A stretch of DNA of 64,000 nt from a virus (taxonomy: Duplodnaviria > Caudoviricetes): positions 22,710 through 86,709 of IMG/VR virus record IMGVR_UViG_2862421350_000002. The stretch is one strand, 5' to 3'. The notes below the pieces were generated by a model. That model was not told the origin of the DNA and made no database searches. It saw nothing but the letters and a program-made list of their open reading frames with translations. Made by a program: the position numbers and the translations under genes. This document shows, piece after piece, positions 6,246-64,000 of this stretch (positions within the stretch are counted from its first letter, which is position 1; each line of letters starts with the position of its first letter).

Positions 6246-6637
6246 TCGCCGATGAAGCCTTTCGTGTCGAACTGGCCCTCTGCGACCGGTGGGGTATCCC
6301 GCACTCCCAGTTCCGGGGTGCAGGCGACGGCACGTGGACGGCACGCGACCGGGAGAAGGCACTGGCCTACCAGGAGTACCTCTCCACGGTGTGCCCGCAG
6401 TGCCGGACCCGGCACGACGACTGGGACCACGGCGGCCCCGACGAAGAGGACGCCTGGGCGGCCACCGTGCAGCTGTGCATCGGCTGCCAGGTCATCGCCG
6501 ACAAGCAGGCCGAACTGTCCCGCGACAAGGGCGACGACACCCACGGACTCAAGGTCGCACTGATCCCCGCAGCGACCGCCGCGGCGATCGAAGCCGAACG
6601 AGAGCAGAAAGCACACCGCCGCCGGCACGGCGGCTGA
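6239..6637 (+). CDS. Tail assembly chaperone frameshift extension (T part of GT)
   Basis: -1 frame reads RLIADEAFRVELALCDRWGIPHSQF...CPQC...CIGC and has no obvious start of its own. Confidence 0.75.
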   Translation, partial: RLIADEAFRVELALCDRWGIPHSQFRGAGDGTWTARDREKALAYQEYLSTVCPQCRTRHDDWDHGGPDEEDAWAATVQLCIGCQVIADKQAELSRDKGDDTHGLKVALIPAATAAAIEAEREQKAHRRRHGG

Positions 6638-6663
6638 CAACGAAGACGAGAGGAGGGCGGCCG

Positions 6664-29129: not shown

Positions 29130-30139
29130 TGACCGCCTCTCAGGAGCGGGAGCACGGGTACGCGCGGTACAAGCTGGACAAGTGCCGCTGTTACACCTGC
29201 GCGTGGGAGGTGTCCCAGTACGTCGAGGCCCGCGCCCGGGCCATCGCCTACGGAACGTGGCAGCCGTTCGTTGACGCCGAGCCCGTCCGGCAGCACCTCC
29301 AGAACCTTCAGTCGTGCGGTATCGGCCTGCGCCGCATAGCCGAAGCCGTCGGCGTGGACAGGAAGAGGCTGCAAGCGGTCCTGACTGGCCGGCCAGAACG
29401 GGGTACGGGCCCGCAGGAGCGGGTGCGCCCGGAGTTCGCGGCGGCGGTCCTGGCTTTGGAGCATTCACTGGAACTGATGGGCCCCACCACCCCCATCAAC
29501 GCGGCCGGTACCCACCGGAGGCTTCAGGCCCTGATGGTCGCCGGGTGGCCTGTGGAGCGGATTGCTGAGGCTCTGGGGCAGCGAACCTCCAACATGGCGG
29601 CCTTGATGCTTCGCCCGCGGGTCATTGTCCGTACGGCCCTCACGGTCCAGGGCTTGTACGACCAGTGGTGGAAGTCCGACCCGCGTATGCACGGTGTCGA
29701 CGTTCAGGCGTACACCGAGACCCGGAAGCACGCCGCCCGCCTGGGGTGGGCTCCGGTCGGCGCGTGGGACGACGACACCATCGACGACCCGGCCGCGGTA
29801 CCGGACCTGGGCGAGCAGGTCACGCGGACTGAAGCGATCGCCGAGGACGCCACCTGGCTGATGGAGAGCTTCGGCTACGACCGGCAGGCCGCCGCGGATC
29901 GTCTCGGCATCTCGAAGAACGGTGTCGCGCAGGCACTGTCGAGAACGGCGCGCGCAAGCGCCAACGGTTCAGCACCGACAGAACGGCCGGTGCTGACGTG
30001 GGAGCCCCCGAAGTGTGGCGAGGCACGCATGTACCGGCAGCATCTGCGCCGCGGCGAGTCCTGCGAGGAGTGCCGCGGTGCCAACGCTGCCGCGGATCGC
30101 CGGTACCGGCTGACAGGAAGCCGCGCGGAGGCGTCCTAG
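29129..30139 (+). CDS. Multi-domain HTH / Zn-finger phage DNA-binding protein (paralog of 45147-46067)
   Basis: HG.ARY...CRC..C, VDAEPVR.HL, GTHRRLQAL, AWDDDTIDDP. Confidence 0.75.
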   Translation: MTASQEREHGYARYKLDKCRCYTCAWEVSQYVEARARAIAYGTWQPFVDAEPVRQHLQNLQSCGIGLRRIAEAVGVDRKRLQAVLTGRPERGTGPQERVRPEFAAAVLALEHSLELMGPTTPINAAGTHRRLQALMVAGWPVERIAEALGQRTSNMAALMLRPRVIVRTALTVQGLYDQWWKSDPRMHGVDVQAYTETRKHAARLGWAPVGAWDDDTIDDPAAVPDLGEQVTRTEAIAEDATWLMESFGYDRQAAADRLGISKNGVAQALSRTARASANGSAPTERPVLTWEPPKCGEARMYRQHLRRGESCEECRGANAAADRRYRLTGSRAEAS

Positions 30140-49899: not shown

Positions 49900-50429
49900 C
49901 CGCCCCTGCCCGGGTGGGCCCGTCGCCTTCGGGTGGCGGGCCCGCCGCATCCCCGGACCTCGACGACCTGGCCGCCGACATCGGTGACCGCATCCGTGCC
50001 GAACGGCTGCACCGCGGCTGGTCCCAAGCCGAGCTTGGCGCCCGGGCCGGCGTGACCAAGAAGTACGTCGGGCTCGCCGAAGCCGGGCACACCAGTCTCC
50101 CCGTGGCCCGCCTCGCCCAGCTGTGCCACGGCCTACGCATGTCGATGAGCGACCTGCTGTCCGACGAGTGGCAGATGCCCGAGCGGAAGCAGCAGCCGGT
50201 CCTGACGCCCCGGCAGGTGCAGATCCTGGCCGAAGCCCGCACTGGGGCGCCGTTGTCCCGGATCGCGGTGCGGGTCGGCATGTCCCGGGAGTCAGTGTCC
50301 GCCCGGATGTCGGAGGTGTACCGGCAGTTGGACGTAGCGCACCTGCCGTACGGGCGCCGGGAGGCTGCGGTGCGGGTCGCGGTGGAGCGGGGACTGCTCG
50401 AACCGGCTGTTCTCGACGACGCAGCGTGA
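49896..50429 (+). CDS. XRE HTH fused to a LuxR-like HTH
   Basis: IGDRIRAER..RGWSQAELG.RAG, then LTPRQVQIL...G.....IA...GMS...V. Confidence 0.8.
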   Translation: MTAPARVGPSPSGGGPAASPDLDDLAADIGDRIRAERLHRGWSQAELGARAGVTKKYVGLAEAGHTSLPVARLAQLCHGLRMSMSDLLSDEWQMPERKQQPVLTPRQVQILAEARTGAPLSRIAVRVGMSRESVSARMSEVYRQLDVAHLPYGRREAAVRVAVERGLLEPAVLDDAA

Positions 50430-50575
50430 CCGACGGCGTGTGTCGTTGCCCGCCCCTCCCTCGATTCCTTGATCGATCTATCCCCTTGGCCCCGGGCGGA
50501 GACGCCTACCCACCGGTAGGGCCCGCCCGGGACACCCCGAGCCGTAACCCACCGTCACATCACCCTGGAGTCCCT

Positions 50576-50812
50576 GTGATCCGCAAGCACCGTTCGAGCA
50601 GCGTCTACCTGTCCCTCCTCATCCTCTGCGCCGTCCCGTACGGGGTGTTCATCAGCGCCATGCGCGCCCCGATGTGGCTGCACCTGATCGTGAGCGCTGT
50701 GGGTGGTCTCGCCATAGCCGTGGCGATGGCGCCGCTGGCCCGGGTGATTCTGCGGCGTCTGGATGACCGGGCGCTGGTCCGCCAGTCCCGGCCCGATGAC
50801 GGCCCCCGGTGA
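50576..50812 (+). CDS. Small two-TM membrane protein
   Basis: Two hydrophobic helices; SD GGAG. Confidence 0.6.
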   Translation: MIRKHRSSSVYLSLLILCAVPYGVFISAMRAPMWLHLIVSAVGGLAIAVAMAPLARVILRRLDDRALVRQSRPDDGPR

Positions 50813-51033
50813 CCGCCCGGCGCGGGTGGTGCGCGTACTGCCACCGGCTCATCACCGTCACCGCAGCCGGCCTGTGGCCCCACGGCCCCGGACGGGACTG
50901 CCGCGGCAACCACACCCTGCCCGCCGTGTATGACACCCGGCCCCGCCGCTACTGGCCGACCTGGCACAACGGCCGACGGGTGCACACCATCCCCGGACCC
51001 GACACCTGGAACCCCAAGGAGACCGCAGCATGA
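50809..51033 (+). CDS. Small Zn-finger protein
   Basis: CAYCHR...PHG...C.G. Confidence 0.6.
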   Translation: MTARRGWCAYCHRLITVTAAGLWPHGPGRDCRGNHTLPAVYDTRPRRYWPTWHNGRRVHTIPGPDTWNPKETAA

Positions 51034-51761
51034 TTCAGCAGCCTGAATCGTCCCCCTTCGTCCTCGACAACACGAAGCTCATGCAGATCACGGCCGTGGA
51101 CGTCAGATCAACCGCGAGCATCAGCATCCCCGGAGCCAACGGCCCGCTCGTCACTATCCACCCTGACGGTCGCCTGGAGTACGGGCCCGGTTACGAGCCC
51201 GACGAGGCGGCCCGCCTGTTCTGGGACGCGATGCGCCGGTGGGCCCCGTCGCCTATGGAGAAGCAGTTCGGGCGGCCGCTCACGGAACGGATCAACGCCA
51301 ACCTGGCACGTGGCCAGAAGGCCGAGGAGACGTTGCGGACGCTGGCCCTGATGTTCGAGGGTTTGCAGCGTCTCCTGGCCACCAGTTCCCGGGACTGGGG
51401 TGAGTACCGGGTCGACGCGTGGTTGTGGGCGGTGCTGCTCGGCTGGGACTGCAAGGAGGACGTACACGACGAGACGTGCGTCCACGGGGCCATGGAGGAA
51501 ATGCAGCAGCGGCACGGCTGGGATGACGCCGCCGTTGCGAAGGCCCGCCGATACCGAGCTGCGGTGCGTGCCGTCGAAGCGTTCGCCGAGGAGCATCCCG
51601 CCGCCGGCCACGTGTACCTGTCGACGGGCTGCTTGCACGGTGAGCACGCGTACTGCCAGTCGATGACAGGGCAGCAGGGGGAAAAGCGGCCGGGTCGGTG
51701 CAAGTTCTGCGACGCCCGGTGCACCTGCTCGTGCCACGGCGAGGCGGAGGGGGCGGCATGA
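51030..51761 (+). CDS. Hypothetical mosaic phage protein
   Basis: VTIHPDGRLEYG..Y.PDEAAR.FW; HVYLSTGCLHG.H.YC. Confidence 0.7.
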   Translation: MIQQPESSPFVLDNTKLMQITAVDVRSTASISIPGANGPLVTIHPDGRLEYGPGYEPDEAARLFWDAMRRWAPSPMEKQFGRPLTERINANLARGQKAEETLRTLALMFEGLQRLLATSSRDWGEYRVDAWLWAVLLGWDCKEDVHDETCVHGAMEEMQQRHGWDDAAVAKARRYRAAVRAVEAFAEEHPAAGHVYLSTGCLHGEHAYCQSMTGQQGEKRPGRCKFCDARCTCSCHGEAEGAA

Positions 51762-52342
51762 CCGAGACAGCTGAGGACCTGACGCGCCGGTATCTGGTGC
51801 CGGTGGCCCGCCTGAATCTGCCCTCCGAGCCGGACGTGATCCACCTGTCCGTGTACCAGTGGCTGCCTGCGTTCGATGCGTGGGCGACGGGCCCGGCGAT
51901 CTGCGGCAGTTCCACTCAGCAGGGGCCGCTGCTGAAGGCGACGGTGACATGCGAGGGCTGCCTGGCGTACCGGGGACGGTACGAGCGGATGCTGGCCCCC
52001 GGGTACCGGCCGGAGGACGACGACCCGGAAGTTCTGCGGGAGCGCCTGACGGCCGCCGTGGACGAGCGGGACCGGGCCCGGCGGTGGGCGGTCAGCCTGG
52101 AGAACGAGAACCGGCACCTTGGCGATCAGACCCGTGAAGCGAAGGAGCAGGCCCGGGTCGCTACGGTCGCCGCCCTGAACCTGCAACGCCAGACGCCGGA
52201 CGCCGCGCAACGCACCCTGGGCCGTATCCGGAAGGCGCGGACGTGGACGGCGGTGTGGGTCGAGCTGGGCCAGTACTTCGGGTTGACGGCGGAGCAGTGC
52301 GGTCTGGAGGCGCGGGCGCGCCGTCGGGGGGAGTCGCTGTGA
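51758..52342 (+). CDS. Hypothetical protein
   Basis: H...AICG...VTCEGC plus coiled coil. Confidence 0.65.
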   Translation: MTETAEDLTRRYLVPVARLNLPSEPDVIHLSVYQWLPAFDAWATGPAICGSSTQQGPLLKATVTCEGCLAYRGRYERMLAPGYRPEDDDPEVLRERLTAAVDERDRARRWAVSLENENRHLGDQTREAKEQARVATVAALNLQRQTPDAAQRTLGRIRKARTWTAVWVELGQYFGLTAEQCGLEARARRRGESL

Positions 52343-52983
52343 TGGGCCGGAACAGTGCGGCCGCCCAGGCTGCTGTCCTGCGCGCGCAGAAGGCGGATGG
52401 CTTGGCCGCCCAATGGGAGCACGGGGCGAAGGGCGAGAAGGCCACTGAGCGGCTCCTGCGCGCGCTGAACGGCCCGTGGTGGCGTCGGTGGCTTCGGAAG
52501 GCACTGGGGCGGCCGGGATGGGTGATCCGGCACGACCTCCGGTTACGGGGCCGCCGGTTCAACATCGATCACGTTGCCGTGTCGCCGTGCGGTACTGCGG
52601 TAGTCGCCCTGGACACGAAGAACTGGCACTGCGGCCGCACCACGACGGAAGTGTCGGGGCGGGTGTTCTGCGGGGACGAGGACCGGCACGACCAGGTCGA
52701 GAAGGTTGTGAACTACGCGCGGCTGATCGAGGCGGCGCTGGGCATGCCGGGGGTGTCGGTGCTGCCGCTGGTGGTGGTGCACGGCTCCCTGGTGGCCGGC
52801 GGGTTTCTTGAGGCCCGGGTGGATGGCTGGAGCGGTCCGGTTTACGTCCTGGGGCCGGCCCGTCTGGTGCCGACGTTGGCCGCCGCCCCGAAGGTTCACG
52901 ACCCGGCCCGGGCAGCTGCGGTGGCGGCCCGGGTGGACAGGGTGTTGCTGCCTTACGTCCCGGGGCCGCGCCGCGTACGGTGA
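52342..52983 (+). CDS. NERD-domain nuclease
   Basis: GAKGE, W...HDL, NIDHVAV.P.G.V..DTKNW; in-frame TTA at 52543. Confidence 0.85.
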   Translation: MGRNSAAAQAAVLRAQKADGLAAQWEHGAKGEKATERLLRALNGPWWRRWLRKALGRPGWVIRHDLRLRGRRFNIDHVAVSPCGTAVVALDTKNWHCGRTTTEVSGRVFCGDEDRHDQVEKVVNYARLIEAALGMPGVSVLPLVVVHGSLVAGGFLEARVDGWSGPVYVLGPARLVPTLAAAPKVHDPARAAAVAARVDRVLLPYVPGPRRVR

Positions 52984-53096
52984 TCGTGAGGGTGCCGCCC
53001 TGCTTGTGGCCCACTGCCCCGCTTGGGGTGGTGGGCCACTTTCGTTGCGTCCGGACCCTCCATGCGGTGTTGCCGTACCGGTCGTACGCTGGGGTT

Positions 53097-53222
53097 ATGA
53101 GCGTCCAGACCGGCCCGTGCGCCTCCTGCCAGCAGCCCACCCACCGGTACGGGCACGGCGGGAACCCGCTGTGTGCGTCGTGCCGGGCGCTCCTCCCCGC
53201 GAGGAAGCCGACCGCGGCCTGA
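53097..53222 (+). CDS. Leaderless small Zn-finger protein
   Basis: TACGCT 6 nt before the ATG; CASC...YG.GG.PLC.SC. Confidence 0.55.
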   Translation: MSVQTGPCASCQQPTHRYGHGGNPLCASCRALLPARKPTAA

Positions 53223-53340
53223 CCGGTCGGCCCGCGGGAGCAACGGAAGGCCTTCGACAAGGTGGCGTTATCCGGAGGCGCTGACCGGGTGTAGATCCTG
53301 GTTCTACGATGAGTGCTCGCGTCGAGCTGGGAGGCCGCTG

Positions 53341-53817
53341 ATGGCTGCCGTTGAGCACACTCCGGACTACCCGCCGAAGACCCCGCCACCGCCGAAGCGC
53401 CCCGTGTCGCCGCCGCGCCCGGAGGCGAGCCTGGTGGGTACGGCCCGGGCGCGGATGCAGGTGCGGAATCGGCGTAGCGCGAACTGGTCCCTGGAGGCCG
53501 CGGCCTGGTCCCCGCAGAAGGCGTCCGCCCACGTGCTGGGCCGGTTGCACGAGTGGGGGTACCGGGAGGTCGACGAGGCGGCGTCCTCGTTGACGGAGCT
53601 GCTGGTGCGGACCGCGGTCGCGGACGGCGGCCGGCGCGTCTCCGTACACCTCGCGGACCAGAACCGGCAGGCGTTGATCGTGGCCCTATCGCACCGGCCG
53701 GGGTTGGCGGTCGCCGACGACGCGGTGCTGCCGGAGCTGACGGGGCTGGGTGCGGTGTCGTGCGGGACGGACACGGCGGAGGACGGGCGCAGGGTGTGGG
53801 CGGTGCTCGACCTGTAG
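53341..53817 (+). CDS. Degenerate HATPase-like (anti-sigma-factor-type) protein
   Basis: L.EWG.....A..LTELLV.TAV and G......GRRVWA.L; ATP-binding N and G boxes missing. Confidence 0.6.
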   Translation: MAAVEHTPDYPPKTPPPPKRPVSPPRPEASLVGTARARMQVRNRRSANWSLEAAAWSPQKASAHVLGRLHEWGYREVDEAASSLTELLVRTAVADGGRRVSVHLADQNRQALIVALSHRPGLAVADDAVLPELTGLGAVSCGTDTAEDGRRVWAVLDL

Positions 53818-53851
53818 TGGGTCGGCTCTCGCCCCCGTCACCCTTCCGGGT

Positions 53852-53898
53852 GAATCCTAGGAGCCCCCTTGCTTTCAATCTTAGGGGGGTGCTAACTT
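53852..53898 (+). promoter_or_regulatory. Promoter for 53944
   Basis: TTGCTT-18-TAACTT, with AATC(C/T)TAGG repeated on both sides of the -35. Confidence 0.5.
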
Positions 53899-53943
53899 TG
53901 AGTTGTCGGCGGGGGAAGCCCCGAACAACCCGAGGAGATCACC

Positions 53944-55152
53944 ATGCTGCGAGTCATTCGCTCCACCATTCAGGGCCTCAACATCGACGCCGACCTCGAA
54001 GACGACTACGCAGCAGCCGCCGAAGCCGGAGAACTCCTCCACGAGACGCACACCAGCGACAAGAACCTCACCATCGAGGTCCGCGCCTACACCGACCCCG
54101 CCGGCCAGAACCGGTTCGCCGTCCTCTACACCCACGGCGCGGACCTCGACTGGCATGACACCAGCGACTACACCGAAGCCCGCAACTCCTACGAGGAGAG
54201 CGTCCGCGAGACCGAGAAGGGCGTGACACTCGACGTCGACGATGACGACAACGAGATCCCGCTCTTCGACACCACCGACGTACGCGGCGTCGCCAACTAC
54301 GAGGAAGGCTCCGAGGAGTCGGGCGAGGCCGAGGCGTACTTGCTGCTCGCCGAGTGGGCCACCGCCGAGGCCGAGAAGGCGCAGGAGATCGCCGCCGAGA
54401 AGACGCAGGCCCGGCAGGCCGCCTACGCCCTCGCCATCGACACCTTCGGCCGCGGCGGCAACGCCGTCCTGGCCCGCCGCGTTGGGAAGAGCGAGCCGAC
54501 CGTGAAGGACATCGCCGACCGGGGCCGGCTGATCCTGGAGGCACAGCGCCGGGAGCAGTTCTCCGTCGACCTGTTCGAGGACAACGCGGGCGGCCTGTAC
54601 CTGCGCAAGGCCGGTGACACCACCGGCTGGTCCCTGGGTGCCGGGGCCGAGCACACCTGCGGGCCATTCACGGATGACGCGAAGGCCTGGCGCGACGGCG
54701 ACTGGGAGCCGAACCAGGGCGACGGCCAGACCCCGAACTACGGCATGGACGTCACCAACCTGACCCACATCGCCACGTGGTCCGCCAAGAAGGGGCTGAA
54801 GGTCATCAACGGTCAGGCCGGAGGTCCGGCAGCAGGGGCGGCGGGCAGCATCTACCTGAAGCTGACCCGGCACGCCACGACGCTCGGAGCCTGGGGGAAC
54901 TACACCCCTCACGGCACGATCGAGGAGAGTGCCATCGCGGCCCTGGGCGACGCCGCCGGGCAGTACAACATTGCAGGCATCGCTCGGGACTGGCGGCAGG
55001 CGGTCAACGAGGCCCTCCCGGACGGGGTGTCGCTTACGAACGTGGCGTTCACGGGCCCGGTGTACCCGAACTTCCCGATGGAGGGCCTTGAGCTCGACGC
55101 GGTGATCAACGAGGTGGACTTCCAGAAGATCGCCGCCCGGCACAAGCTGTAG
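53944..55152 (+). CDS. Acidic multi-domain hypothetical protein (own promoter and terminator)
   Basis: SD GAGGAG; central HTH-like GGNAVLARRVGKSEPTVKDI. Confidence 0.75.
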   Translation: MLRVIRSTIQGLNIDADLEDDYAAAAEAGELLHETHTSDKNLTIEVRAYTDPAGQNRFAVLYTHGADLDWHDTSDYTEARNSYEESVRETEKGVTLDVDDDDNEIPLFDTTDVRGVANYEEGSEESGEAEAYLLLAEWATAEAEKAQEIAAEKTQARQAAYALAIDTFGRGGNAVLARRVGKSEPTVKDIADRGRLILEAQRREQFSVDLFEDNAGGLYLRKAGDTTGWSLGAGAEHTCGPFTDDAKAWRDGDWEPNQGDGQTPNYGMDVTNLTHIATWSAKKGLKVINGQAGGPAAGAAGSIYLKLTRHATTLGAWGNYTPHGTIEESAIAALGDAAGQYNIAGIARDWRQAVNEALPDGVSLTNVAFTGPVYPNFPMEGLELDAVINEVDFQKIAARHKL

Positions 55153-55166
55153 AAAACGCTGCGCAC

Positions 55167-55206
55167 GCAGAGCGGCCCCTGCCCGTCTGGGTGGGGGCCG
55201 CTCTGC
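55167..55206. terminator. Terminator at the convergence of the two arms
   Basis: GCAGAGCGGCCCC / GGGGCCGCTCTGC. Confidence 0.8.
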
Positions 55207-55251
55207 TGTGTGTCCGGTGGTGGCATCGGCTTCGAGGCGGGACCACCCCGT

Positions 55252-55540
55252 GGTTTTGTTCACGACTTCGAGCAGCACTTGTTCACGGTTTCGGGAGGCG
55301 CCCGGTGCCCCCGCGAGTCGATGTTCACGAGAACGGGAGGCACGTGCCCGCGGTCGGCAACGGCGCGATGGCCACCACTGCACTCGCCCGTGGCCAGCGC
55401 TTTTGCTCGGGCCGCCGCGGCGCGGACGACGGCGAGCGGACGGTCGCCACCGTGGTGCTGTCCGTTCTCGTGAACATCGGACGCGGGCGGGTGCCTCCCG
55501 AACTGCTGCCGAAACGCTGCTCTGCGACGTGAACAGAGCC
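55252..55540. repeat. ~290-bp element with long degenerate inverted arms
   Basis: Perfect 18-bp IR at 55319-55336 / 55462-55479; TGTTCACG occurs five times, mirrored. Confidence 0.7.
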
Positions 55541-55690
55541 AGGGGCGCGGGTAACGATCCAGTCGGGTCCCGCCGCCTCAATGCGAACGCAGCGGTGGTG
55601 GTCGCGGCCGAAGGCGCCGTGGGCAAATCCGTGGATGCCGTCGCCGACCGCGAGAGGACGGTTCGCCGGGCTGGGATGGGAAGGGCTCAT
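55325..55690 (-). CDS. Hypothetical protein, probably interrupted by the IR element
   Basis: LAVGD.IHGFA.GAFGRD...CVRIEA.GPDWIV.R, then runs into the repeat. Confidence 0.45.
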   Translation of the reverse strand: MSPSHPSPANRPLAVGDGIHGFAHGAFGRDHHRCVRIEAAGPDWIVTRAPGSVHVAEQRFGSSSGGTRPRPMFTRTDSTTVATVRSPSSAPRRPEQKRWPRASAVVAIAPLPTAGTCLPFS

Positions 55691-55766
55691 GTCTTCCATG
55701 CTGTGCCCGCTGGCGCGGTTTGTTGCCCCCGATCGGGTGCGGGCCGACGCGGGGGCGCGGGGCGGG

Positions 55767-56816
55767 TCAGGCGTGCCAGGTGCCGCGGATAGCCGCGGTG
55801 TTGAAACCGGGCCCGTAGGCGACCATGACGCCGCGGGCGCCGGCCGCCGGGGGTTCGGTGTGGGTGCGCTCCAGGATCCGCAGGACGGACGGCCCGCCAA
55901 GGTTGCCTTCCTGGGCGAGGGTGTCGGTGCTGTGCCGGGTGTCGTGGGCGTCGAGGCCCAACGCGCGGGCGGTGTCGTCGATGATGCGCTGGCTGCCGGG
56001 GTGGATGACCCCGAAGTCGACGAGGTCGGGGCCCAGCCACTTCAACAGGTCGGGGAGGACATCATCGGCGGCGGTGAGCGCGGCCTTCGTGCTGTCGAAG
56101 TGGAACCCGGCCGCGTCGACCCTGCCGTTGTAGCGGGTGAGGCTGTCGGGGAGGACGTGCTCGTACGTGTCGTCGGGGGTGGCGACGTGGAGGCCGGGGC
56201 CGCAGGGTTCGCCGGTGACGATGGTCGCGGCGGCGGAGTCACCGAAGAGCGCTTTGTAGATCATGTGCTCGACGGCGTTGTCCTGGTGGTTGTAGACGGC
56301 GGAGATGGTCTCGGCGGCGACGACGAGGATGCGGGTGCCGGGGCGTGCGGCAATCATGTCGACGGCGCGGATCAACGCCTGGGTGCCGCCGGCGCAGGCC
56401 AGGGTGGTGAGGGCGATACGGCGGACGTCAGCACGGAGCCCGAGTCGCTCCACCAGGTGGATGTCCATGTTGGGGACGGCCCAGCCGGTGGAGTGGGTGG
56501 TGATGACCGCGTCCACATCGACCGGGGCGAGGTGGTGTGCGGTGAGGGTTCGGCGGGCTGCCTCGGTGGCGAGGTCGAGGGCGTCACCGAACGCTGTGGC
56601 CGCCCGGTCGCCGACCCCGGCCTCGCCGGACACGGTGGGGGCGTCCAGGGGGCGGGTGAAGTACCGGGTGTTCACCCCGGTATTCGCGACGATGCGGAGG
56701 ATTGCCGCGAGCTTGGGGTGGTCGGGGTGGTGGTGGCGGATGTCGTCGGCGATTTGGGTGGTGGTGATCTGGTGCTGGGGGAACACGGTGGTGGGGCGGG
56801 CTATGTAGGCGGGCAC
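55767..56816 (-). CDS. Type III polyketide synthase (germicidin synthase/RppA/PhlD-like)
   Basis: Cys-His-Asn triad (LACAGG, IHPGS, EGNLGG), ALFGDSAAA, YGPGF; GTG 56816 with SD GGAGG; 349 aa. Confidence 0.93.
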   Translation of the reverse strand: MPAYIARPTTVFPQHQITTTQIADDIRHHHPDHPKLAAILRIVANTGVNTRYFTRPLDAPTVSGEAGVGDRAATAFGDALDLATEAARRTLTAHHLAPVDVDAVITTHSTGWAVPNMDIHLVERLGLRADVRRIALTTLACAGGTQALIRAVDMIAARPGTRILVVAAETISAVYNHQDNAVEHMIYKALFGDSAAATIVTGEPCGPGLHVATPDDTYEHVLPDSLTRYNGRVDAAGFHFDSTKAALTAADDVLPDLLKWLGPDLVDFGVIHPGSQRIIDDTARALGLDAHDTRHSTDTLAQEGNLGGPSVLRILERTHTEPPAAGARGVMVAYGPGFNTAAIRGTWHA

Positions 56817-56854
56817 GACATCCTCCGGCAGGCCTGGGCGGCGGTGGTCAGCAC

Positions 56855-56896
56855 AACCTATGGCACGTGTCACGCAGCATTCCCCCTGATCAGGGG
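56855..56896 (-). promoter_or_regulatory. Putative PKS promoter with upstream palindrome
   Basis: TAGGTT -10 (56855-56860); perfect CCCCTGATCAGGGG at 56883-56896. Confidence 0.45.
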
Positions 56897-57001
56897 CTTG
56901 AAGAACGGGGCGTACGGTCTGTTTCCGGTTGTCGGGGCGGGTGTGACCGGTGGTACGGGAGGGGTGGCGCCTTCGGTTCCCAGGCTGGTTCGGGGCATGG
57001 G

Positions 57002-57043
57002 GAAGCCCCCTGCGCGATGGGGGTGGAGCGTGCAGGGGGCTTC
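57002..57043 (-). terminator. Hairpin between the regulator and the PKS
   Basis: GAAGCCCCCTGC / GCAGGGGGCTTC. Confidence 0.7.
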
Positions 57044-57118
57044 GTCTGAGGGGTCGTCGGCCGGGGCCGCGGCGACCGTGCACTGAGGCTGCGGGCCGAC
57101 CGCCGGCCGGGCGGTGGG

Positions 57119-57949
57119 TCAGGGGGCCCGGAGGGCGGGGGTACGGGCGTGAGCCCGCTGCTCCCCAGCATGGAACACGAGGACGATCAGGCGGGCCCCG
57201 GGGGCCGTCATCGGCTGGGCGGCGCACATCGTGACCCAGCCCGGCCCGTCTTCGGCGTGCAGCAGGGGCCGTTCGTCGCCGTCGGGGTGGATGTGGGCGA
57301 CGGCCCCGGTCCAGATGGGGGCGCAGTCCGGGTCGGCGAGGACATCCCGTTCGAGGCGGCGGAGGATCGGGTCGTCGGGGCGTGAGGCCAGGGCGGCCCG
57401 GAGTTGGGGGAGGACGAGGGGCGCCCAGGCGGTGTGCCAGTCGGTGAGCATGTGGCGGCCGCCGGGCTCGAGGGCCATCCACCGCATGGTGTTGCGGGGT
57501 ACAGCGCCGTCGGGGAACAGGCGAGCGAACTCCTTGTTGTGGGCTATGAGCTCCCAGGAGGCGTCGGTGACATAGGCGGGGTGGAGCATGCCGTCGACTG
57601 CTTCCTGCCATACGCCGGGGACCTGCTTCCCGGAGGCGGGGGTAAGGGGCCCGGGCGGGTCTCCGATACCGGCGTACCGGCACAGGGACGTCCATTCCTG
57701 TTCGTTCAGGGCGAAGAGGGTCGCAACGTCGCGGAGGTAGTCGACGCGCGGGTTCGGGTACCGGCCGGACTCGAGGCGCCGGTACGTGCCTGCTGTGCGG
57801 TCCGTCAGTTCGTCGACTTGCTGCTGGGTCAGCCCGGGGGCGCGTCGGCCTTGCTTGCTGGGGCGGGAAAAGCCGTGGCCTGCGGGGTCGATCAGCGCCC
57901 GACGCTCCGTCAGGAGTTTACGAAGGGCTGCCTTACTCGCCTTGCTCAT
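57119..57949 (-). CDS. MmyB-family regulator (XRE HTH plus PAS-like ligand-binding domain)
   Basis: L..LL.ERRA.I.P...G......RR.PGLTQQQV; Y.RLE.GR; PAYVTD..W.LIA.N...N.MRW. Confidence 0.9.
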   Translation of the reverse strand: MSKASKAALRKLLTERRALIDPAGHGFSRPSKQGRRAPGLTQQQVDELTDRTAGTYRRLESGRYPNPRVDYLRDVATLFALNEQEWTSLCRYAGIGDPPGPLTPASGKQVPGVWQEAVDGMLHPAYVTDASWELIAHNKEFARLFPDGAVPRNTMRWMALEPGGRHMLTDWHTAWAPLVLPQLRAALASRPDDPILRRLERDVLADPDCAPIWTGAVAHIHPDGDERPLLHAEDGPGWVTMCAAQPMTAPGARLIVLVFHAGEQRAHARTPALRAP

Positions 57950-58011
57950 GTTCCTACTTTCCCCCGGTGTATGAGGCATCTGGTGCTGTTGAAATCCTAG
58001 ATGGCGTCATG

Positions 58012-58029
58012 GTTTTTAGCGCTAAAAAC
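58012..58029. promoter_or_regulatory. 18-bp perfect palindrome upstream of the MmyB-type gene
   Basis: GTTTTTAGCGCTAAAAAC. Confidence 0.6.
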
Positions 58030-58326
58030 TAACCCTAGAAAACCGGCTGTTTACCCGTGATGCTGAGCTGGTGTCCCGCTGGCCTGCGGAGTCTCGCAGC
58101 GTCCTGGGCGGGCGGGGCATGTGTGGGAATCCCGACCAAACCGTGAACGGTGTTCGGTTTGGTCCGTGCAGCAGGGAATTACCCACTACCTGTCCGGAAT
58201 GTGGCGGGGAGTTCTCGGAACGCTTGTGCGTATCGCAGCGCGGCAGGCGGTTCGGGGCTTCCCGCCATTTCTCTGATCCCAGTTCAGGGGGTCGGGGCGG
58301 GGCAGGGGTGAGGCGCGGCCGGTCAC

Positions 58327-58896
58327 TTAGGTGCCGGCCGCGCCTTCGTTGTGTCCGGGTGCCGGGGCGGTGGTTGCGCGCCTGGTGGCGGTGGCGGCCC
58401 GGCATCGGGGGTACGGGCAGCCGGCCACCGGCGGGGCGTGGTGCTTCTCGCACATGGCTCGGGAGTCGAGGCACTGCCCGGCGGTCAGGCGGGCCACCTC
58501 GGCCTCCAGCTCGCGGACACGGGCGTCGAGGTCGTCGATGCGGGCGTTGGCCTTCCACCACCGGGCGCGCGACTCCTTCCACGCGTTCCTGACCCGGTCG
58601 CGTTCGTCGTACAGGGCGTCGAGTGCGTGGCTGGTGAGGTCGTCGAGCGGGATGCGGGGCTGGATGGGGTGAGCTTGGCCCATGTCGGGGATGGCTACGA
58701 CGGCGAGCGTCATGCCGCAGAGGGTGAGGATGCGGTCGGCCCAGTCCAGGGTGAGGGTGGCGCGGCCGGTGAGCATGTGGCTCATGTGCTTGGTGCTGAG
58801 GTCGAGGCGGCGGGCGGCTTCGGCTTGGCTCATGCGTGCGGTGGCGAGGGCGGCTTTCACCTGTGCGCGGAGGTCGCGGTCGGGCTGGGTGGTCAC
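58327..58896 (-). CDS. XRE/Cro-like HTH protein with coiled coil
   Basis: MSQAEAARRLDLSTKHMSHMLTGRATLTL. Confidence 0.8.
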   Translation of the reverse strand: MTTQPDRDLRAQVKAALATARMSQAEAARRLDLSTKHMSHMLTGRATLTLDWADRILTLCGMTLAVVAIPDMGQAHPIQPRIPLDDLTSHALDALYDERDRVRNAWKESRARWWKANARIDDLDARVRELEAEVARLTAGQCLDSRAMCEKHHAPPVAGCPYPRCRAATATRRATTAPAPGHNEGAAGT

Positions 58897-59459
58897 CGGA
58901 CCCCCTCTGTGGTGGCGTGCTCGTCGCACGTTGGGCGGTTACATGGGCGCCCCAGGGGCAGCCAGTAGGCGCGGTGCGCGACCAGCCCGGCGGCCAACCA
59001 GTCATCCCCCGCGAGGTACTGGGGGCGTCGCTCCGCCCAGAATGCGCGGGCCTGCGTCAGGGGCGCCTGCTCGTACATGGCGCTGAACCCGTGGCTCTTG
59101 ATCAATCGAATCCATGAGTTGCGGGCGTTGTCGTAGGAAGTGCGGGACGTGCTGTAGCCGGAGGCCGGGTCGATGTCGTTGACCGTGTTGCCTATGGCGA
59201 TGCAGAGGGCGATGCGTGCGTCGGCCATCGACGTTCGGTGGTCCGCAACCTGTTCGGGGGTCCAGCCCATGGCCTGTTGCTCGTGGTGAGACATGGCGAG
59301 TCGTTTGATACGGCTGGCCGCTTCGTACCGAGGCTTCCGGTCGTCCTGTTGCTGCTGCTCGGGCAAGGGTGCAGCCTCGCCGGGACGGGCTGGTGCCTGC
59401 GGGTAGTCGGACAGGTCGAACAGAACGTCCGTCTGCCGTCCGGCAAGGGTGCGTTGCAC
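58893..59459 (-). CDS. Hypothetical protein
   Basis: SD AAGGA; GTGA overlap with the next gene. Confidence 0.6.
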   Translation of the reverse strand: MQRTLAGRQTDVLFDLSDYPQAPARPGEAAPLPEQQQQDDRKPRYEAASRIKRLAMSHHEQQAMGWTPEQVADHRTSMADARIALCIAIGNTVNDIDPASGYSTSRTSYDNARNSWIRLIKSHGFSAMYEQAPLTQARAFWAERRPQYLAGDDWLAAGLVAHRAYWLPLGRPCNRPTCDEHATTEGVR

Positions 59460-59524
59460 GGTCGTGGTCCTTCCGGGTTTGGGGTGGCCGCCGGGTGGGG
59501 CGGCCACCCACAGGGGCAGGGGCG

Positions 59525-59899
59525 TCAGACGGCGGGGGTGCGGCGGTAGGCGTCCAGCGCGGAGTGCCCGTTGACGACGACGTGCGGAGCGGCCTTCCGC
59601 GCGAGACGGAGCGCGGTGGTGAGGTCGAACCGGTGGGCCCTCAGCCAGTCGTCGCCACGGTCGTGGGGCTTGATCCCCTCCGCCCATTCGCCGTCGCTGC
59701 CGAGGCACATGCCGTGCCGGGTGATCGCCCACTGGTCGACACCCCGGTACTCCACGGTGATGGCGAAGACGTGTCGGTTGATGTCGCCCTCGGGAAGGAT
59801 CGACACCTCGTACTCGGTGGGCTGGACGATGGCGTCGGGGATGCCGGGGGTGACGTGGCCGAGGGCTTCTCGGATCTGGCGCATGGTCATGGCGGTCAT
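59525..59899 (-). CDS. Hypothetical phage protein
   Basis: ITVEYRG..QWAI....CL..DG.W...HRFDL.TAL.LA; SD GAGGAG. Confidence 0.7.
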   Translation of the reverse strand: MTAMTMRQIREALGHVTPGIPDAIVQPTEYEVSILPEGDINRHVFAITVEYRGVDQWAITRHGMCLGSDGEWAEGIKPHDRGDDWLRAHRFDLTTALRLARKAAPHVVVNGHSALDAYRRTPAV

Positions 59900-59924
59900 G
59901 TGGTGTCTCCTCGGTGGGCCGGGA

Positions 59925-60323
59925 TCACCCGGCAGCAGGGGCGGGGCGGTGGTCTTCGAGGCGCGGGATACCAGCGGCCACGTGGTCCGCGCGGTCAGCG
60001 GCGGCGAGCAGCGCCATGGCCAGGTGCCGGGCGTCGGAGGCGTACAGCGGGACGAAGTCCAGCCCGGGGTACATCGATTCCGGGGAGGAGATGTAGACCA
60101 GCCCGTCGGCTGTGTTCTGCTCGTCGACGGTGCGGATCACCCAGACCTTCTCCTTGGTGCCGCCGCGCGGGGTCATCTCGCGCAGGTCCCATTCGTGGCC
60201 GGGCCACTGGTGGTCGGGGCCGTTGATGCGGGTGGGCTTGGGCCGTTCGGCGCTGCCCGCGAGGGAGGTGAGGCGTTGCAGCTCGGCCCGGATCGCTTCG
60301 AGGCTGAGGTCGGGCGTGGTCAT
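59925..60323 (-). CDS. Hypothetical protein
   Basis: DAR.LAMALLAAADRA motif. Confidence 0.65.
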   Translation of the reverse strand: MTTPDLSLEAIRAELQRLTSLAGSAERPKPTRINGPDHQWPGHEWDLREMTPRGGTKEKVWVIRTVDEQNTADGLVYISSPESMYPGLDFVPLYASDARHLAMALLAAADRADHVAAGIPRLEDHRPAPAAG

Positions 60324-61198
60324 CGTGTGGGCTCCTCGGGCGCGGCAGGGGCAGCGGGCGTGGTGGCCAGCGCGTCCATGACCCGCAGCGCGGTCCCGGC
60401 GAACAGGCCCTTGGCGGCGTCCCGGATCTGGTGGACGGCGGTGGTGTGGCTGTTCTGCCGGTACTCGGTGGGGGTCATGCCGAGTGCGGTGGCCCGGTCG
60501 GCGGTGGTGGGTTGCTGCTCCCCGGCGGCAGCCTCACCGGCCACGTCACGGAGCTCGGCCGCGGCGGCGCGCACAGCCTGATCCCAGGTCTCGTCGCGCT
60601 CGCTGGCCGCCGGAGTGACGGAGTGGATGAGCGCCTGCTCGATCAGGCCGGCACCCTCGCGCAGGGTCGTGGCCCGGCGCAGGTCCCGGTTCGCCAGGGC
60701 GGCTTGCCGCCACCGGGCGATCACCTGACGGGCGTCTTGGGGCTCGATGTAGTCGCCGCAGTCGCAGGCCTGGCAGGCGTCCTCGAAGTGCTGCTGCTCG
60801 GGGTGCCCGCAGATGCAGGTCGCGGCCCGGTCGGCAGGCGCGGGCGGGGCAGCGGGGACGTGCGGGTCGTCCGGCCAGCGGCCAGCGCGGTGGTCGGCGT
60901 CCTTCTCGCACCGGCCGCCGGGGGTCATCACCGGGCAGCGGCCGTCCCCGCCCTCGGTGGTGCCGAGGAGCTGCCGGGCCACCGCCAGGGCGGCCTCCCA
61001 CATGCCGTAGCCCGGCTCGTTGTCACGGTACGGGGCCAGCCACGCCAGGGCGTTGGCGGTCGCGTCCAGCCAGTCGGCGAGCAGCGGGTCACCAGCGGCC
61101 CGGCGGAGGTCGGCGGCCTGCTGGAGAGGCTCGGCGGTCGGCCACGTGGTGCGGCCGTCGGCGGGGCGGTCAGCGGGGGTGGGGGTGGTGTCGGTCAT
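60320..61198 (-). CDS. Hypothetical mosaic phage protein
   Basis: CICGH...H...C..CDC; LREGA..I. Confidence 0.65.
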   Translation of the reverse strand: MTDTTPTPADRPADGRTTWPTAEPLQQAADLRRAAGDPLLADWLDATANALAWLAPYRDNEPGYGMWEAALAVARQLLGTTEGGDGRCPVMTPGGRCEKDADHRAGRWPDDPHVPAAPPAPADRAATCICGHPEQQHFEDACQACDCGDYIEPQDARQVIARWRQAALANRDLRRATTLREGAGLIEQALIHSVTPAASERDETWDQAVRAAAAELRDVAGEAAAGEQQPTTADRATALGMTPTEYRQNSHTTAVHQIRDAAKGLFAGTALRVMDALATTPAAPAAPEEPTR

Positions 61199-61282
61199 CG
61201 GGGGCTCCAGGTGGTGGTGTGCGGGGCTGGCGGGGCGCCCGCCCGGCTACGACCCGGGCGGGCGCGGACGTGGTTACGGGGC

Positions 61283-61561
61283 CTACGCGGCTTCACGGGC
61301 GGCCAGGATCGGGTCGAGGGTTTGCCGCATCCACATGCGATACCTCTCGCCCGTCAGGTCGCCTTGGGTGACGCTTGCCGCCTCGTGCACGAGGCTCTCG
61401 ACGTCGATGTCGTCCTCGTCGAGGGTTTCGGCCGCGTCTTCCAGGGCCCGCTTGAAAGCCTCAGCGGGCGGCATGTCCTCGTAGCTGTCGGCGAAGAGAC
61501 CGAACGCGTCGATGAGGCGGGGCATGTAGGTGGCGATCAGGGTCTCGAAGGTGTCGGGCAT
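61283..61561 (-). CDS. Hypothetical acidic protein
   Basis: First gene after O3; its leader repeats at 61187-61221 / 61550-61584. Confidence 0.65.
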   Translation of the reverse strand: MPDTFETLIATYMPRLIDAFGLFADSYEDMPPAEAFKRALEDAAETLDEDDIDVESLVHEAASVTQGDLTGERYRMWMRQTLDPILAAREAA

Positions 61562-61678
61562 CAGGGGCTCCAGGTGGCGGTGTGGGCTCGCTGGGCGGTT
61601 GGGGCCCGGGGAAGGGGGCTATTCCAGGGTCAGCCCGTGGCGGCCGGATGCTCCCCCTGCTCGTGCGGGCGATGCCCC

Positions 61679-61711
61679 ATGATACCGCGAAACGTATTGC
61701 ATAGCCATGCG
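61679..61711 (-). promoter_or_regulatory. Leftward promoter with operator O3
   Basis: CGTATTGC-ATA-GCCATGCG; minus strand TGGCTA-17-TATCAT. Confidence 0.7.
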
Positions 61712-61805
61712 AATGAGGGGTTTGGGTTCCCCGCGCCTTACCACCCGCCCGGCAGCAGCCTCAACGGGTTCGGGGATCATCAGAGGCCTGTGCCAAGCTC
61801 CCGCC

Positions 61806-62462
61806 ATGACCACCGCAACCCCAGACGACGAGTACGAGATCAGCCCCGAACTCGCCCAGCACATCGCCGAGATCACACCCGAGCAAACCGAGAACCTCGC
61901 CGCGGCCCTCGACCGGCTCCTCCCTGCGCTGACTTTCATGAGCGACGAGGTATCGGCAGGGATCACCAACGTGATCCAGCCGACCGTCCTCAACTTCTCC
62001 CGGGTTCTGTCCGAGGTCAGCCTTCCCGTGCTGGACACCTCGTGGGCGGAGCGCCTGATCGAATCCGTGCAGGGCCTGCGCCTGAGCGACAGTGCTTACG
62101 CGGGGATGACGGACACGCTGGCCCGTGTCGCGGAGATGGCCGCATCCCTGGACCTGGACGCCGAGCTGCCGGATGCTGCCGGCGGGGACCTGGAGGAGCT
62201 GGGCGTCCAGGGCGTCACGTTCGCCACGACGCAGGGCGCCGGACTGTCCCGGGAGGCTCAGCGGAAGCTGGCGCTGTACTTCGTCGGGGCGTTGGTGTTC
62301 ATGCTTCTGATGCAGGGGATGGTGCAGAGCGAGGCGGTGAACGACCTCGTGCAGAAGGCCGGTGTGGCTGGTCCGGCTGCTGCTCTCGCGATGGCGGTGA
62401 CGGCCCGCCAGTTCGACAAACTGTTCCCGCCGCCCCCCGGCGACGACGAGACCGCGGAGTAA
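61806..62462 (+). CDS. Membrane protein on the opposite strand (moron-like)
   Basis: Acidic N-terminus, two C-terminal hydrophobic helices, hairpin 62485-62518 downstream. Confidence 0.65.
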   Translation: MTTATPDDEYEISPELAQHIAEITPEQTENLAAALDRLLPALTFMSDEVSAGITNVIQPTVLNFSRVLSEVSLPVLDTSWAERLIESVQGLRLSDSAYAGMTDTLARVAEMAASLDLDAELPDAAGGDLEELGVQGVTFATTQGAGLSREAQRKLALYFVGALVFMLLMQGMVQSEAVNDLVQKAGVAGPAAALAMAVTARQFDKLFPPPPGDDETAE

Positions 62463-62536
62463 CCGCACGCCCACCACACAGCACTGAGCCCCCGACCATG
62501 CTGCAGTCGGGGGCTTCGGTCTGCGTCGCGGCGCGG

Positions 62537-62959
62537 CTACGCGTTGGTGTCCGTGTCCTCGAGCTGGTCGTCGCCCAGCCAGTGGCCGGCCATGTTCGAC
62601 GACACCTGCACTGCGGACCGCAGGTGTGTCTGGGCGAGGAGCATGGACTGCCGGGCGTCAATCAGCGACCGCAGCAGCCGGGACACGGCCTCGCCGGGCT
62701 CATCGCCGTTGGCCATGCGAATGGCCTGCTGTTCCTCGACGTGCCGTACGGCGGACGCGGTCTGGTCGACGGCCTGGGGGAGGCGTTCGAAGAGGACGTA
62801 CAGGGCACCGACGGCTTCCCCGATGTTGGGGGGCGCGTGGTTGATGATCTGGTGCTCGCCGTAGAACGCCTCGGGGCCGTTGATGGTGAGGTGGTTGTAC
62901 TCGCGGATGTTGTCGGCGGCGTCACGGATGCTGCGGTGCGGGTCACGGGTCAGGTCCAT
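62537..62959 (-). CDS. Hypothetical helical protein
   Basis: AAD.IR.YNH.T...L..L.ERLPQA..Q; SD AGGAG. Confidence 0.7.
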   Translation of the reverse strand: MDLTRDPHRSIRDAADNIREYNHLTINGPEAFYGEHQIINHAPPNIGEAVGALYVLFERLPQAVDQTASAVRHVEEQQAIRMANGDEPGEAVSRLLRSLIDARQSMLLAQTHLRSAVQVSSNMAGHWLGDDQLEDTDTNA

Positions 62960-63150
62960 CGGAGGTCTCCTCGCTGCTCGGCTGCCTGAACCCAGTTTCG
63001 CCACGCGGCCTGAACTTTCTGGAGCAGCTTGGCCGCGTGATCGGTCGCGGCGGTCACCTCGCGCAGGGTGCGGTGGGCGCGGATGAGGAAGCTGATGGCG
63101 CGCTGAAGCCGGCTGGGCTGCTCGGGCTCGGTGGTGGGGCGTTGAGTCAC
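62950..63150 (-). CDS. Small hypothetical protein
   Basis: SD GAGGAG before GTG 63150. Confidence 0.5.
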   Translation of the reverse strand: MTQRPTTEPEQPSRLQRAISFLIRAHRTLREVTAATDHAAKLLQKVQAAWRNWVQAAEQRGDLRWT

Positions 63151-63339
63151 GGGCGGTCTCCTCGGTGCGGTGAGCGGTTGTGCTGGGCTTACTGTGGCAT
63201 CGGGGGCTGACAGGCCGGGCGGAAACACGTCGCCCCCCACCCGAACCGGGCAGGGGGCGATGGGGCGACCGACGCGTCAGTCGTCGAGGCCGACCAGGAA
63301 TCGCCGGTTGCATTCCTCGTTGCCCAGGACCGCCTGACG

Positions 63340-63741
63340 TCACGGGCTGAGCCACTCGCCCCACCGGCAGCCCAGGCACAGCCACGCCGGGCCCGACCGG
63401 CCGTGAGCGGCATGCTCGGCCTGGTACTCGATCTCGCTGCCGCACTCCGGGCAGGCGTCGGGCCGGTCAGCAGGCTCGGCCGGGTCCGGCTTCGGGTCGT
63501 CCATGGGCTCGGGGTCGTTCACCGGGTAGTCGTGGGCCACCCGGTAGCTGGCCGCCCGGTACTTGGCGAGCAGCGTGTCGACGGCGGGGCGTCCCTGCTC
63601 GCTGTCCTCGTCGTCGCCCCCGTCTACGCGGACGGTGTAGCCGTCGGTCCACAGCTCGATGTGGACGTCCTCGCGGTCCTGGTCGGGGTGGGTGAGGATC
63701 CACTGGTGCTGAACGTGGGCGTCGGAGTCGGTTGCAGGCAT
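63340..63741 (-). CDS. Hypothetical protein with C-terminal Zn ribbon
   Basis: CPECG...WLCLGC; SD GGAG. Confidence 0.65.
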   Translation of the reverse strand: MPATDSDAHVQHQWILTHPDQDREDVHIELWTDGYTVRVDGGDDEDSEQGRPAVDTLLAKYRAASYRVAHDYPVNDPEPMDDPKPDPAEPADRPDACPECGSEIEYQAEHAAHGRSGPAWLCLGCRWGEWLSP

Positions 63742-63793
63742 TCTCTTCTCCAGGTCGGGTGAGGCCATTCTGCAAGTGCCGGAGGAAGCAAAC

Positions 63794-63973
63794 TCACGTC
63801 CGCCGGCCGAGTCCGGCCGCCATGGGCCAGACGCCGCCCAGGACGGCGACGGCGCCACCGAGGTGCTGGAGCTGCTCGCCGGTGAGGGTGAGCAGTCCGC
63901 AGAGGGCGATGGCCAGGCCAGCGGCGGTGTGTGCGGGGGTCGGGTTCTGGCCGGTGGGGTGGTTATCGGTCAT
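63794..63973 (-). CDS. Small membrane protein
   Basis: MTDNHP...AAGLAIALCGLLTL...GAVAVLGGVW. Confidence 0.5.
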   Translation of the reverse strand: MTDNHPTGQNPTPAHTAAGLAIALCGLLTLTGEQLQHLGGAVAVLGGVWPMAAGLGRRT

Positions 63974-64000
63974 CGTGGTGGCCTTCCGGGGCGTGGTGGG

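Follow-up and report, generated by a model that had tools for sequence, protein, structure and literature searches.

What a temperate phage gains from carrying a regulated pyrone synthase is the question raised by a two-gene cassette in the stretch of viral DNA analysed here. This stretch, referred to as the window, comprises 64,000 nucleotides of the IMG/VR record IMGVR_UViG_2862421350_000002; it is the larger part of one single 86,709-bp contig and has a G+C content of about 70%. The cassette consists of a gene encoding a polyketide synthase (PKS) of type III and, directly upstream of it, a gene for a regulator with an XRE-type helix-turn-helix (HTH) and an MmyB-type ligand-binding domain. 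The original prediction, made from the letters of the sequence, of an intact type III PKS directly downstream of an XRE/MmyB-type gene holds for both genes, which are co-oriented on the minus strand. Most likely, the two genes are the orthologue of the published violapyrone cluster vioB-vioA, and a Streptomyces phage-plasmid of the pZL12 type carries them as cargo.

The pair itself is already known: it has been annotated since the pZL12 record, was remarked on in pSLE1 (PMC4487206), and was studied as vioAB from 2016 to 2018. In itself, the cassette is ordinary, being a further copy of a published two-gene pyrone cluster. What goes beyond print is that the carriers of vioAB are tailed phage-plasmids, and that the regulator is one of the ligand-sensing MmyB family, standing behind conserved operator-like palindromes; the question of what the phage gains is thereby made testable. 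The words "phage" and "MmyB" are absent from the vio papers, so neither the phage-plasmid carrier nor the ligand-binding domain is discussed there. Table S3 of PMC5898002, which lists 21 vioAB genomes, and Figures S16 and S17 may overlap with the present survey. In the literature searched, "MmyB-like" and "type III PKS" were not found together, and the plasmids pCQ3 and pCQ4, used below for comparison, appeared only in the vio paper. Searches on phage-plasmids, Streptomyces, and polyketides, and on type III PKSs in prophages and actinophages, returned only PMC10023795, whose available text reports type III PKS clusters only in plasmid-borne prophages.

Orthology to the violapyrone cluster

The cluster was described in S. 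somaliensis SCSIO ZH66, where vioA is located on a circular plasmid of about 85 kb (PMC4924298, Huang 2016) and makes violapyrones, which are 3-methyl-4-hydroxy-6-alkyl-alpha-pyrones. Deletion of vioA abolished violapyrone B, deletion of vioB raised it about 8-fold, and deletions of the flanking open reading frames (ORFs) had no effect. Loss of the developmental regulator WblA lowered the vioB transcript and raised that of vioA, with no direct binding detectable (PMC4924298).

The comparison with VioA and VioB was made through the pCQ3 and pCQ4 proteins. VioA (350 aa) is reported to be 95% identical to WP_012840496.1 of pCQ3, and VioB (272 aa, XRE family) 95% identical to WP_015060958.1 of pCQ4 (PMC4924298, Table 1); these two proteins are the exact coding sequences beneath the tblastn matches in the two plasmids. 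Over the full length, the window PKS shares 74% identity (259/350) with the former, and the window regulator shares 66% identity (178/271) with the latter. Both pCQ3 and pCQ4 carry a capsid gene related to that of the window. The PKSs of two further loci, L055 and L056, are 92-95% identical to those of pCQ3 and pCQ4 and fall into the same 30-row clade as the window enzyme. The two genes stand in the same order and orientation as in S. somaliensis, the regulator gene immediately preceding the PKS gene on one strand, with no tailoring genes. The window copy has nevertheless diverged: it has Val instead of Ile at position 174 of the synthase, a longer spacer (302 bp) between the regulator and the downstream PKS, and a different candidate operator before the PKS.

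The carrier is a pZL12-like Streptomyces phage-plasmid as far as its genes tell. The contig encodes virion and lysis proteins (major head protein, tape measure, tail fibre, and endolysin) as well as an integrase, an Erf-like protein, and ParB. Streptomyces phage ZL12 matches window positions 50000-64000 with 85.5% DNA identity across 33% of the length, and the element is therefore assigned to the pZL12-like group, with virion, lysis, and partition genes combined on one ZL12-related replicon in the 85-95 kb class. The corresponding genes of pZL12/phage ZL12 are pZL12.100 and pZL12.99; the ZL12 PKS is 88.8% identical to the window PKS. The ZL12 records name the pair "type III polyketide synthase" and "transcriptional regulator", which is annotation only and no functional study. 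In the case of pSLE1, the type III PKS and the absence of cluster neighbours were remarked on in PMC4487206. The phage-gene setting without tailoring, transport, or resistance genes that had been proposed for the cassette was likewise recovered: the contig carries phage genes, and no such Pfam domain was found among the 10 neighbouring ORFs tested.

The polyketide synthase and its likely product

The vioA orthologue lies at 55767-56816 (minus strand) and encodes 349 aa from a GTG start, preceded at a distance of 4 nt by the ribosome-binding site GGAGGA (56821-56826, minus strand), which is kept in most phage-plasmid loci and in most loci of one chromosomal group (context B, described below). 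The same 349-aa protein is called by PGAP in the closest plasmid; a longer ORF of 642 aa, which runs across the spacer to 57695, was rejected as a high-GC artefact. Pfam models place the enzyme among the ketosynthases, with Chal_sti_synt_N at 6.2e-22 and 78.6 bits (cut-off 27) and ACP_syn_III_C at 27.8 bits (cut-off 26.6). FAE1_CUT1_RppA and ACP_syn_III also matched, and Chal_sti_synt_C scored 26.0 bits, slightly below its cut-off of 27. No NCBIfam model reached its cut-off, the best being DpgA with 102 bits against 425. Of the 113 PDB sequences matched at E <=1e-5, the best 60 were listed, and all named chains among them are type III PKSs. The catalytic triad Cys141-His272-Asn305 aligns with that of tetrahydroxynaphthalene synthase (THNS) and is invariant in all 61 aligned homologues. 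With a length of about 350 aa, ketosynthase domains, and a Cys-His-Asn triad, the protein is a type III, chalcone synthase-like PKS.

Two better-known enzymes were considered as closer identities and rejected. Germicidin synthase (Gcs, 3v7i), to which the original prediction had likened the N-terminus, is like the window PKS a stand-alone bacterial type III enzyme, makes alkyl-pyrones from fatty-acid-derived starters, and has a similar N-terminal motif. It matches the window PKS in two stretches with 145.9 bits in total, less than the 163.5 bits of THNS (1u0m), and is not its orthologue. The proposed N-terminal resemblance exists, as a 31-bit stretch to 3v7i; the N-terminal match to THNS is similar, and THNS matches better overall. 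Identity with THN synthase (RppA) fails on four residues that have roles in THNS: the positions of Cys106, Cys168, Cys171, and Tyr224 are occupied by Ser, Ile, Val, and Gly in the window PKS.

The wider claim of kinship with stand-alone pyrone synthases is borne out through VioA, which makes alkyl-alpha-pyrones and is grouped with Cpz6, DpyA, and Gcs, that is, with pyrone synthases using fatty-acid-derived starters, and is reported to be closest to Cpz6 (PMC5898002, Hou 2018). In VioA, the changes I174A and Y229A cripple the enzyme, S242A is null, and L190I makes no difference (PMC5898002); G231L is an impaired variant (PMC6024985). At the equivalent positions, the window PKS retains L190, Y229, G231, and S242 and has V174 where VioA has Ile, a position at which only I174A was tested in VioA. 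Because of the orthology to VioA at 74% identity, the most likely product is a 3-methyl-4-hydroxy-6-alkyl-alpha-pyrone formed from a beta-ketoacyl starter and methylmalonyl-CoA. By analogy with VioA, the synthase would load a fatty-acid-derived beta-ketoacyl thioester on Cys141, and condensation with methylmalonyl-CoA and ring closure would then follow.

Across 61 rows, 69 of the 349 PKS columns are invariant. The ratio of non-synonymous to synonymous substitution rates (dN/dS) lies between 0.12 and 0.36 in 11 of 12 pairs compared, the remaining pair giving 0.71. Positions assigned to the active-site cavity by alignment to PDB relatives and by chalcone synthase numbering are invariant or nearly so in all three genomic contexts distinguished below (57 rows).

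The regulator, its promoters, and candidate operators

The vioB orthologue at 57119-57949 (minus strand, ATG start) encodes 276 aa. It combines an N-terminal XRE HTH (HTH_31, 33.4 bits, above cut-off) with a C-terminal MLTR_LBD domain (9.6e-18, 65.2 bits, cut-off 26.3), which is the architecture of the MmyB/MltR family (PMC3406030). A search of PDB by sequence gave no chain at E 0.01. For the regulator, dN/dS lies between 0.07 and 0.26 in 12/12 pairs, and 66 of its 276 columns are invariant. Purifying selection acts on the two genes whether they reside in phage-plasmids or in chromosomes. Neither gene contains a TTA codon, the mark of bldA control, nor does the HTH gene upstream.

The sequence before the PKS contains a conserved promoter-like arrangement. 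A hexamer resembling a -10 element, TAGGTT (TAnnnT), lies at 56855-56860 (minus strand); such a hexamer is found 42-60 nt before the PKS start in 26/26 phage-plasmid loci, 8/9 context-B loci, and 21/21 loci of a second chromosomal group, context C. The corresponding -35 hexamer is weak (GGAATG / GCAATA). Abutting the expected -35 is a perfect 14-bp palindrome, CCCCTGATCAGGGG, at 56883-56896, whose 12-bp core has one exact match in the window and in the 86.7-kb element. With up to two mismatches, CCTGATCAGG occurs in register in 16/26 phage-plasmid and 9/9 context-B loci, compared with 27/520 and 4/180 in shuffled sequences; it was seen in 1/21 context-C loci, and there out of register.

A second such arrangement precedes the regulator, in a region that is much more AT-rich than the one upstream of the PKS and is conserved in the phage-plasmid and context-B loci. 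The -10-like hexamer TAGGAT at 57994-57999 (minus strand) probably belongs to the regulator's own promoter, and TAGGAT, TAGGCT, or a close variant is kept in the 18 regulator upstream regions compared. Over the expected -35 lies a perfect 18-bp AT-rich palindrome, GTTTTTAGCGCTAAAAAC, at 58012-58029, a candidate operator. With as many as 3 mismatches allowed, the window still holds this single site, against none in 100 shuffles, and no second copy exists in the 86.7-kb element. Phage-plasmid and context-B loci preserve related TTTTTAGCGCTAA / TTTTCAGTATTAAAA blocks. Further upstream, a conserved block, AAACAGCCGGTTTTCTAGGG, occupies 58033-58052 (minus strand) and takes the form of a perfect AAACAGACTGTTT palindrome in context B. 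Just after the regulator, an inverted repeat that is 93% complementary (57002-57043, minus strand) could form a GC-rich hairpin with 15-nt arms and a 12-nt loop, a possible terminator that would keep the two transcription units apart; it has no T-run and was not listed by a consensus terminator scan.

A promoter that seems to be the regulator's own, and the hairpin behind its gene, make it probable that transcription of the synthase is separate and begins at its weak promoter. A dimer of the regulator would bind the palindrome beside the -35 and hold the synthase off, and a lipid-like ligand or a host developmental input, such as WblA in S. somaliensis, would lower this repression. The palindrome is read as a candidate repressor site, and the repressor model is the simplest one, because the orthologue VioB acts negatively on vioA.

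The opposite sign of control also has to be considered. MmyB is described as the activator of the methylenomycin cluster (PMC3406030), and an activator recruiting RNA polymerase from the palindrome, which is centred about 41 nt upstream of the guessed start, would suit a promoter with a poor -35 and a conserved palindrome just upstream of it. Activation is nevertheless unlikely for this pair, given that deletion of vioB raised the product about 8-fold and that the fall in the vioB transcript accompanied a rise in that of vioA (PMC4924298). The window regulator shares its architecture with MmyB and MltR and differs from MmyB in that its orthologue acts negatively.

Several points weigh against reading the pair as a vioBA orthologue repressed through the PKS palindrome. 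The palindrome is missing (at least 3 mismatches) in 10/26 phage-plasmid loci, including L055 and L056, which are nearest to the vio plasmid of the published work, so that the site bound by VioB may be something else. The position of its centre suits an activator as well as a repressor. In PMC3406030, not only is MmyB an activator, but most family members (15 of 16 paralogues in S. coelicolor) are divergent from their targets, whereas the window genes are co-oriented. Regulator homologues with 58-63% identity also occur on linear plasmids without any PKS. With regard to the product, 74% identity does not fix the choice of starter or extender, and the difference from VioA at position 174 is of Val for Ile, while the damaging change tested was I174A and not I174V.

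Signs of a wider regulon were sought within the window and were not found: CCCTGATCAGGG has 6 matches at up to 2 mismatches, compared with 4.98 expected, and nothing stands out beyond the exact site. A copy of the palindrome with 2 mismatches at 58278-58289, upstream of the regulator, is not conserved in related loci. A scan of 55000-58600 with E. coli-type models gave no promoter-like sites and one terminator-like site on the plus strand (55237-55251), fewer than in shuffles; for Streptomyces, this outcome is uninformative.

Distribution and history of the pair

The idea that the two genes form a unit, which the original prediction had proposed to test by a survey of co-occurrence, is supported by their distribution. 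Genome and viral-contig scans yielded 61 loci, of which at least two are one and the same record from the two collections. In 59 loci, the regulator immediately precedes the PKS and is co-oriented with it; at the remaining two, the contig ends at the PKS. The pair is thus a conserved functional unit. In tblastn searches of plasmids, the PKS was matched in 85 records and the regulator in 65, with the best 60 listed in each case. Of the records, 38 appear in both listings, and in 36 of these the regulator was counted by hand as lying on the same strand, 75-1,235 bp upstream of the PKS. Within the phage collection, the PKS was found only in phage ZL12 (two records). Both genes are present in 26 of 34 Streptomyces/Kitasatospora plasmids that have a related capsid gene; the other 8 are not among the best 60 PKS rows, the weakest of which is 31% identical. 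The concern that the pair might be a one-off chromosomal pickup did not materialize in these plasmids.

Clustering of the neighbouring ORFs separated three contexts. Context A is the phage-plasmid, with variable small phage genes and contigs mostly of about 85-100 kb. Context B is chromosomal and comprises 9 loci with genes for a nonribosomal peptide synthetase, a cold-shock protein, NUDIX, GNAT, a protease, an esterase, and MarR nearby. Context C, also chromosomal, comprises 21 loci, in which genes for a transporter of the major facilitator superfamily, an oxidoreductase, and a DUF4032 kinase-like protein precede the pair, and genes for TetR, a short-chain dehydrogenase/reductase (SDR), and Acyl_transf_3 follow it. 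A core of 17 context-C loci (L029-L044 and L048, with the PKS at about 6001-7038) has Leu229 and Ala242 instead of the Tyr and Ser of VioA and always has the TetR, SDR, and Acyl_transf_3 genes downstream. To judge from these residues and neighbours, this core may make a different, further-modified product.

A quick IQ-TREE analysis of 82 PKS rows, rooted on distant representatives, recovered the whole family as one clade (SH-aLRT 100), in which context C is basal and paraphyletic. All 27 phage-plasmid rows fall into one clade (SH-aLRT 96) that arises within the chromosomal copies; nested inside it, context B forms a clade of its own (96), and two loci on large contigs also belong to the larger clade. 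The simplest history is that a phage-plasmid lineage appears to have captured the chromosomal pair once and that copies later returned to chromosomes. This history is held loosely, given the long outgroup branches that carry the root and the supports of 82 and 85 at the two forks that decide it.

Capsid identity and PKS identity are uncoupled. CP109510 has a capsid 94% and a PKS 76% identical to those of the window, while in CP108377 the capsid is 57% and the PKS 93.7% identical. Since capsid identity does not follow PKS identity, the elements are mosaic, and a co-divergence of the pair with the element backbone can therefore not be claimed. At E 1e-20, no capsid match was obtained for five plasmids of 88-102 kb that carry the PKS. 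Given these plasmids and the uncoupling, the cassette travels across elements with differing head genes. It has stayed intact and under purifying selection amid the reshuffling of the genes around it.

Possible benefits to the element

The pyrones might serve the lysogen as a chemical weapon or defence, antibacterial against neighbours or protective against other phages, and this benefit would explain why the pair is retained. Purifying selection in phage-plasmids and chromosomes alike fits a benefit of this kind, which would be independent of the phage, and violapyrones do inhibit methicillin-resistant Staphylococcus aureus, with a best minimum inhibitory concentration of 25 ug/mL (PMC4924298). 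This activity is weak, however, and the doses at which it was measured are high; the neighbourhood contains no resistance or export gene; and in the available part of PMC10023795, prophages are said to have no clusters for antiphage molecules that are known. A weapon is consequently a possible benefit, to be entertained tentatively and on balance rather unlikely.

A second proposal is that the pyrone resembles germicidin and manipulates host development, self-inhibiting germination or modulating differentiation to the advantage of the element. The grouping of VioA with Gcs among the pyrone synthases with fatty-acid-derived starters (PMC5898002) speaks in favour of such a role, as do the response of vioA and vioB expression to WblA (PMC4924298) and a WhiB-like match in a protein encoded by the element. 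Still, no effect on germination or development is described for mutants of vioA or vioB in the available text of the vio reports, PMC4924298 does not use the word "germination", and the resemblance of the window enzyme to Gcs does not exceed that to THNS. Manipulation of the host is very unlikely on this evidence. If the pyrone were a weak antibiotic or a developmental effector, the cassette would be a clean case in Streptomyces of a secondary-metabolite gene that brings about lysogenic conversion.

The role put forward in the original prediction was that of phage communication, in which the pyrone would be a diffusible signal and the MmyB-type regulator its receptor, tuning lysis and lysogeny, or plasmid and lytic replication, in the manner of arbitrium. 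The likeness to the AimP-AimR-AimX system is that a phage-borne gene for a small molecule adjoins a gene whose product binds both DNA and a ligand. The ligand-binding domain of the regulator (MLTR_LBD) is of the lipid type, and the crystal structure of MltR contains a fatty-acid-like ligand, modelled as myristic acid (PMC3406030). Violapyrones resemble the photopyrone signals, and the vio authors suggest possible signalling; expression of the impaired VioA variant G231L in other strains switched on cryptic metabolites (PMC6024985, PMC12113368). The pair is, moreover, kept in a diverse phage-plasmid clade of 27 rows and in most of the capsid-positive plasmids.

Other observations point away from communication. 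In contrast to arbitrium, no link to a lysis-lysogeny regulator was found, and each of the two candidate operators occurs in the 86.7-kb element at the cassette and nowhere else. Chromosomes that have no phage genes around the locus (context B) also carry this pair, with the same layout of promoters. Over 57 rows, the residues predicted to line the pocket hardly vary, so that there are no signal types and no sign of a diversification of signals. In addition, the sole vioB-deletion phenotype in the available text of PMC4924298 is an increase in product. Communication of this kind must thus be regarded as highly improbable. There is an equally slim chance that violapyrone is sensed through the MmyB-type pocket of VioB as a diffusible cue of cell density or kin that adjusts the behaviour of the element, between plasmid maintenance and lytic growth, or the development of the host. 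The cassette would in that case be a polyketide counterpart of peptide-based phage communication, and the chromosomal copies would be domesticated versions. If signalling were true, it would represent a new chemical class of phage communication.

Neighbouring genes and further homologues

Among the 10 neighbouring ORFs tested, only two proteins scored above Pfam cut-offs. One is an HTH_31 protein of 200 aa (58327-58929, minus strand), encoded directly upstream of the promoter region of the cassette; it has a homologue in phage ZL12 (73%) and is absent from most related loci. The other is a NERD nuclease-related protein (52339-52983, plus strand), which is kept near the cassette in many phage-plasmid loci with 34-95% identity. 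Farther away, the C-terminal part of the protein encoded at 29129-30139 (plus strand) matches a WhiB-like family (phrog_12112, 3.7e-07). Since WblA, a WhiB-like protein of the host, influences the vio cluster studied in print, this element-encoded Wbl protein could feed into the same control of the cassette.

Homologues of the two genes were also seen in other arrangements. The regulator homologues on PKS-less linear plasmids amount to 6 records among the matches listed; in the two inspected (L064:4995-6058 and L065:5022-6085), the gene is followed by an overlapping 76-aa ORF, and ParA/ParB genes lie nearby. On the S. anulatus linear plasmids NZ_CP109342.1 and NZ_CP108641.1, PKS homologues of about 41% identity overlap or abut a gene for an autoregulator-binding transcription factor of the ScbR family, so that here, too, a synthase is paired with a signal receptor. 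Finally, the PKS matches P0122, a protein of 4,818 aa, in 12 separate stretches with 23% identity; this protein looks like a giant ketosynthase-like repeat protein.

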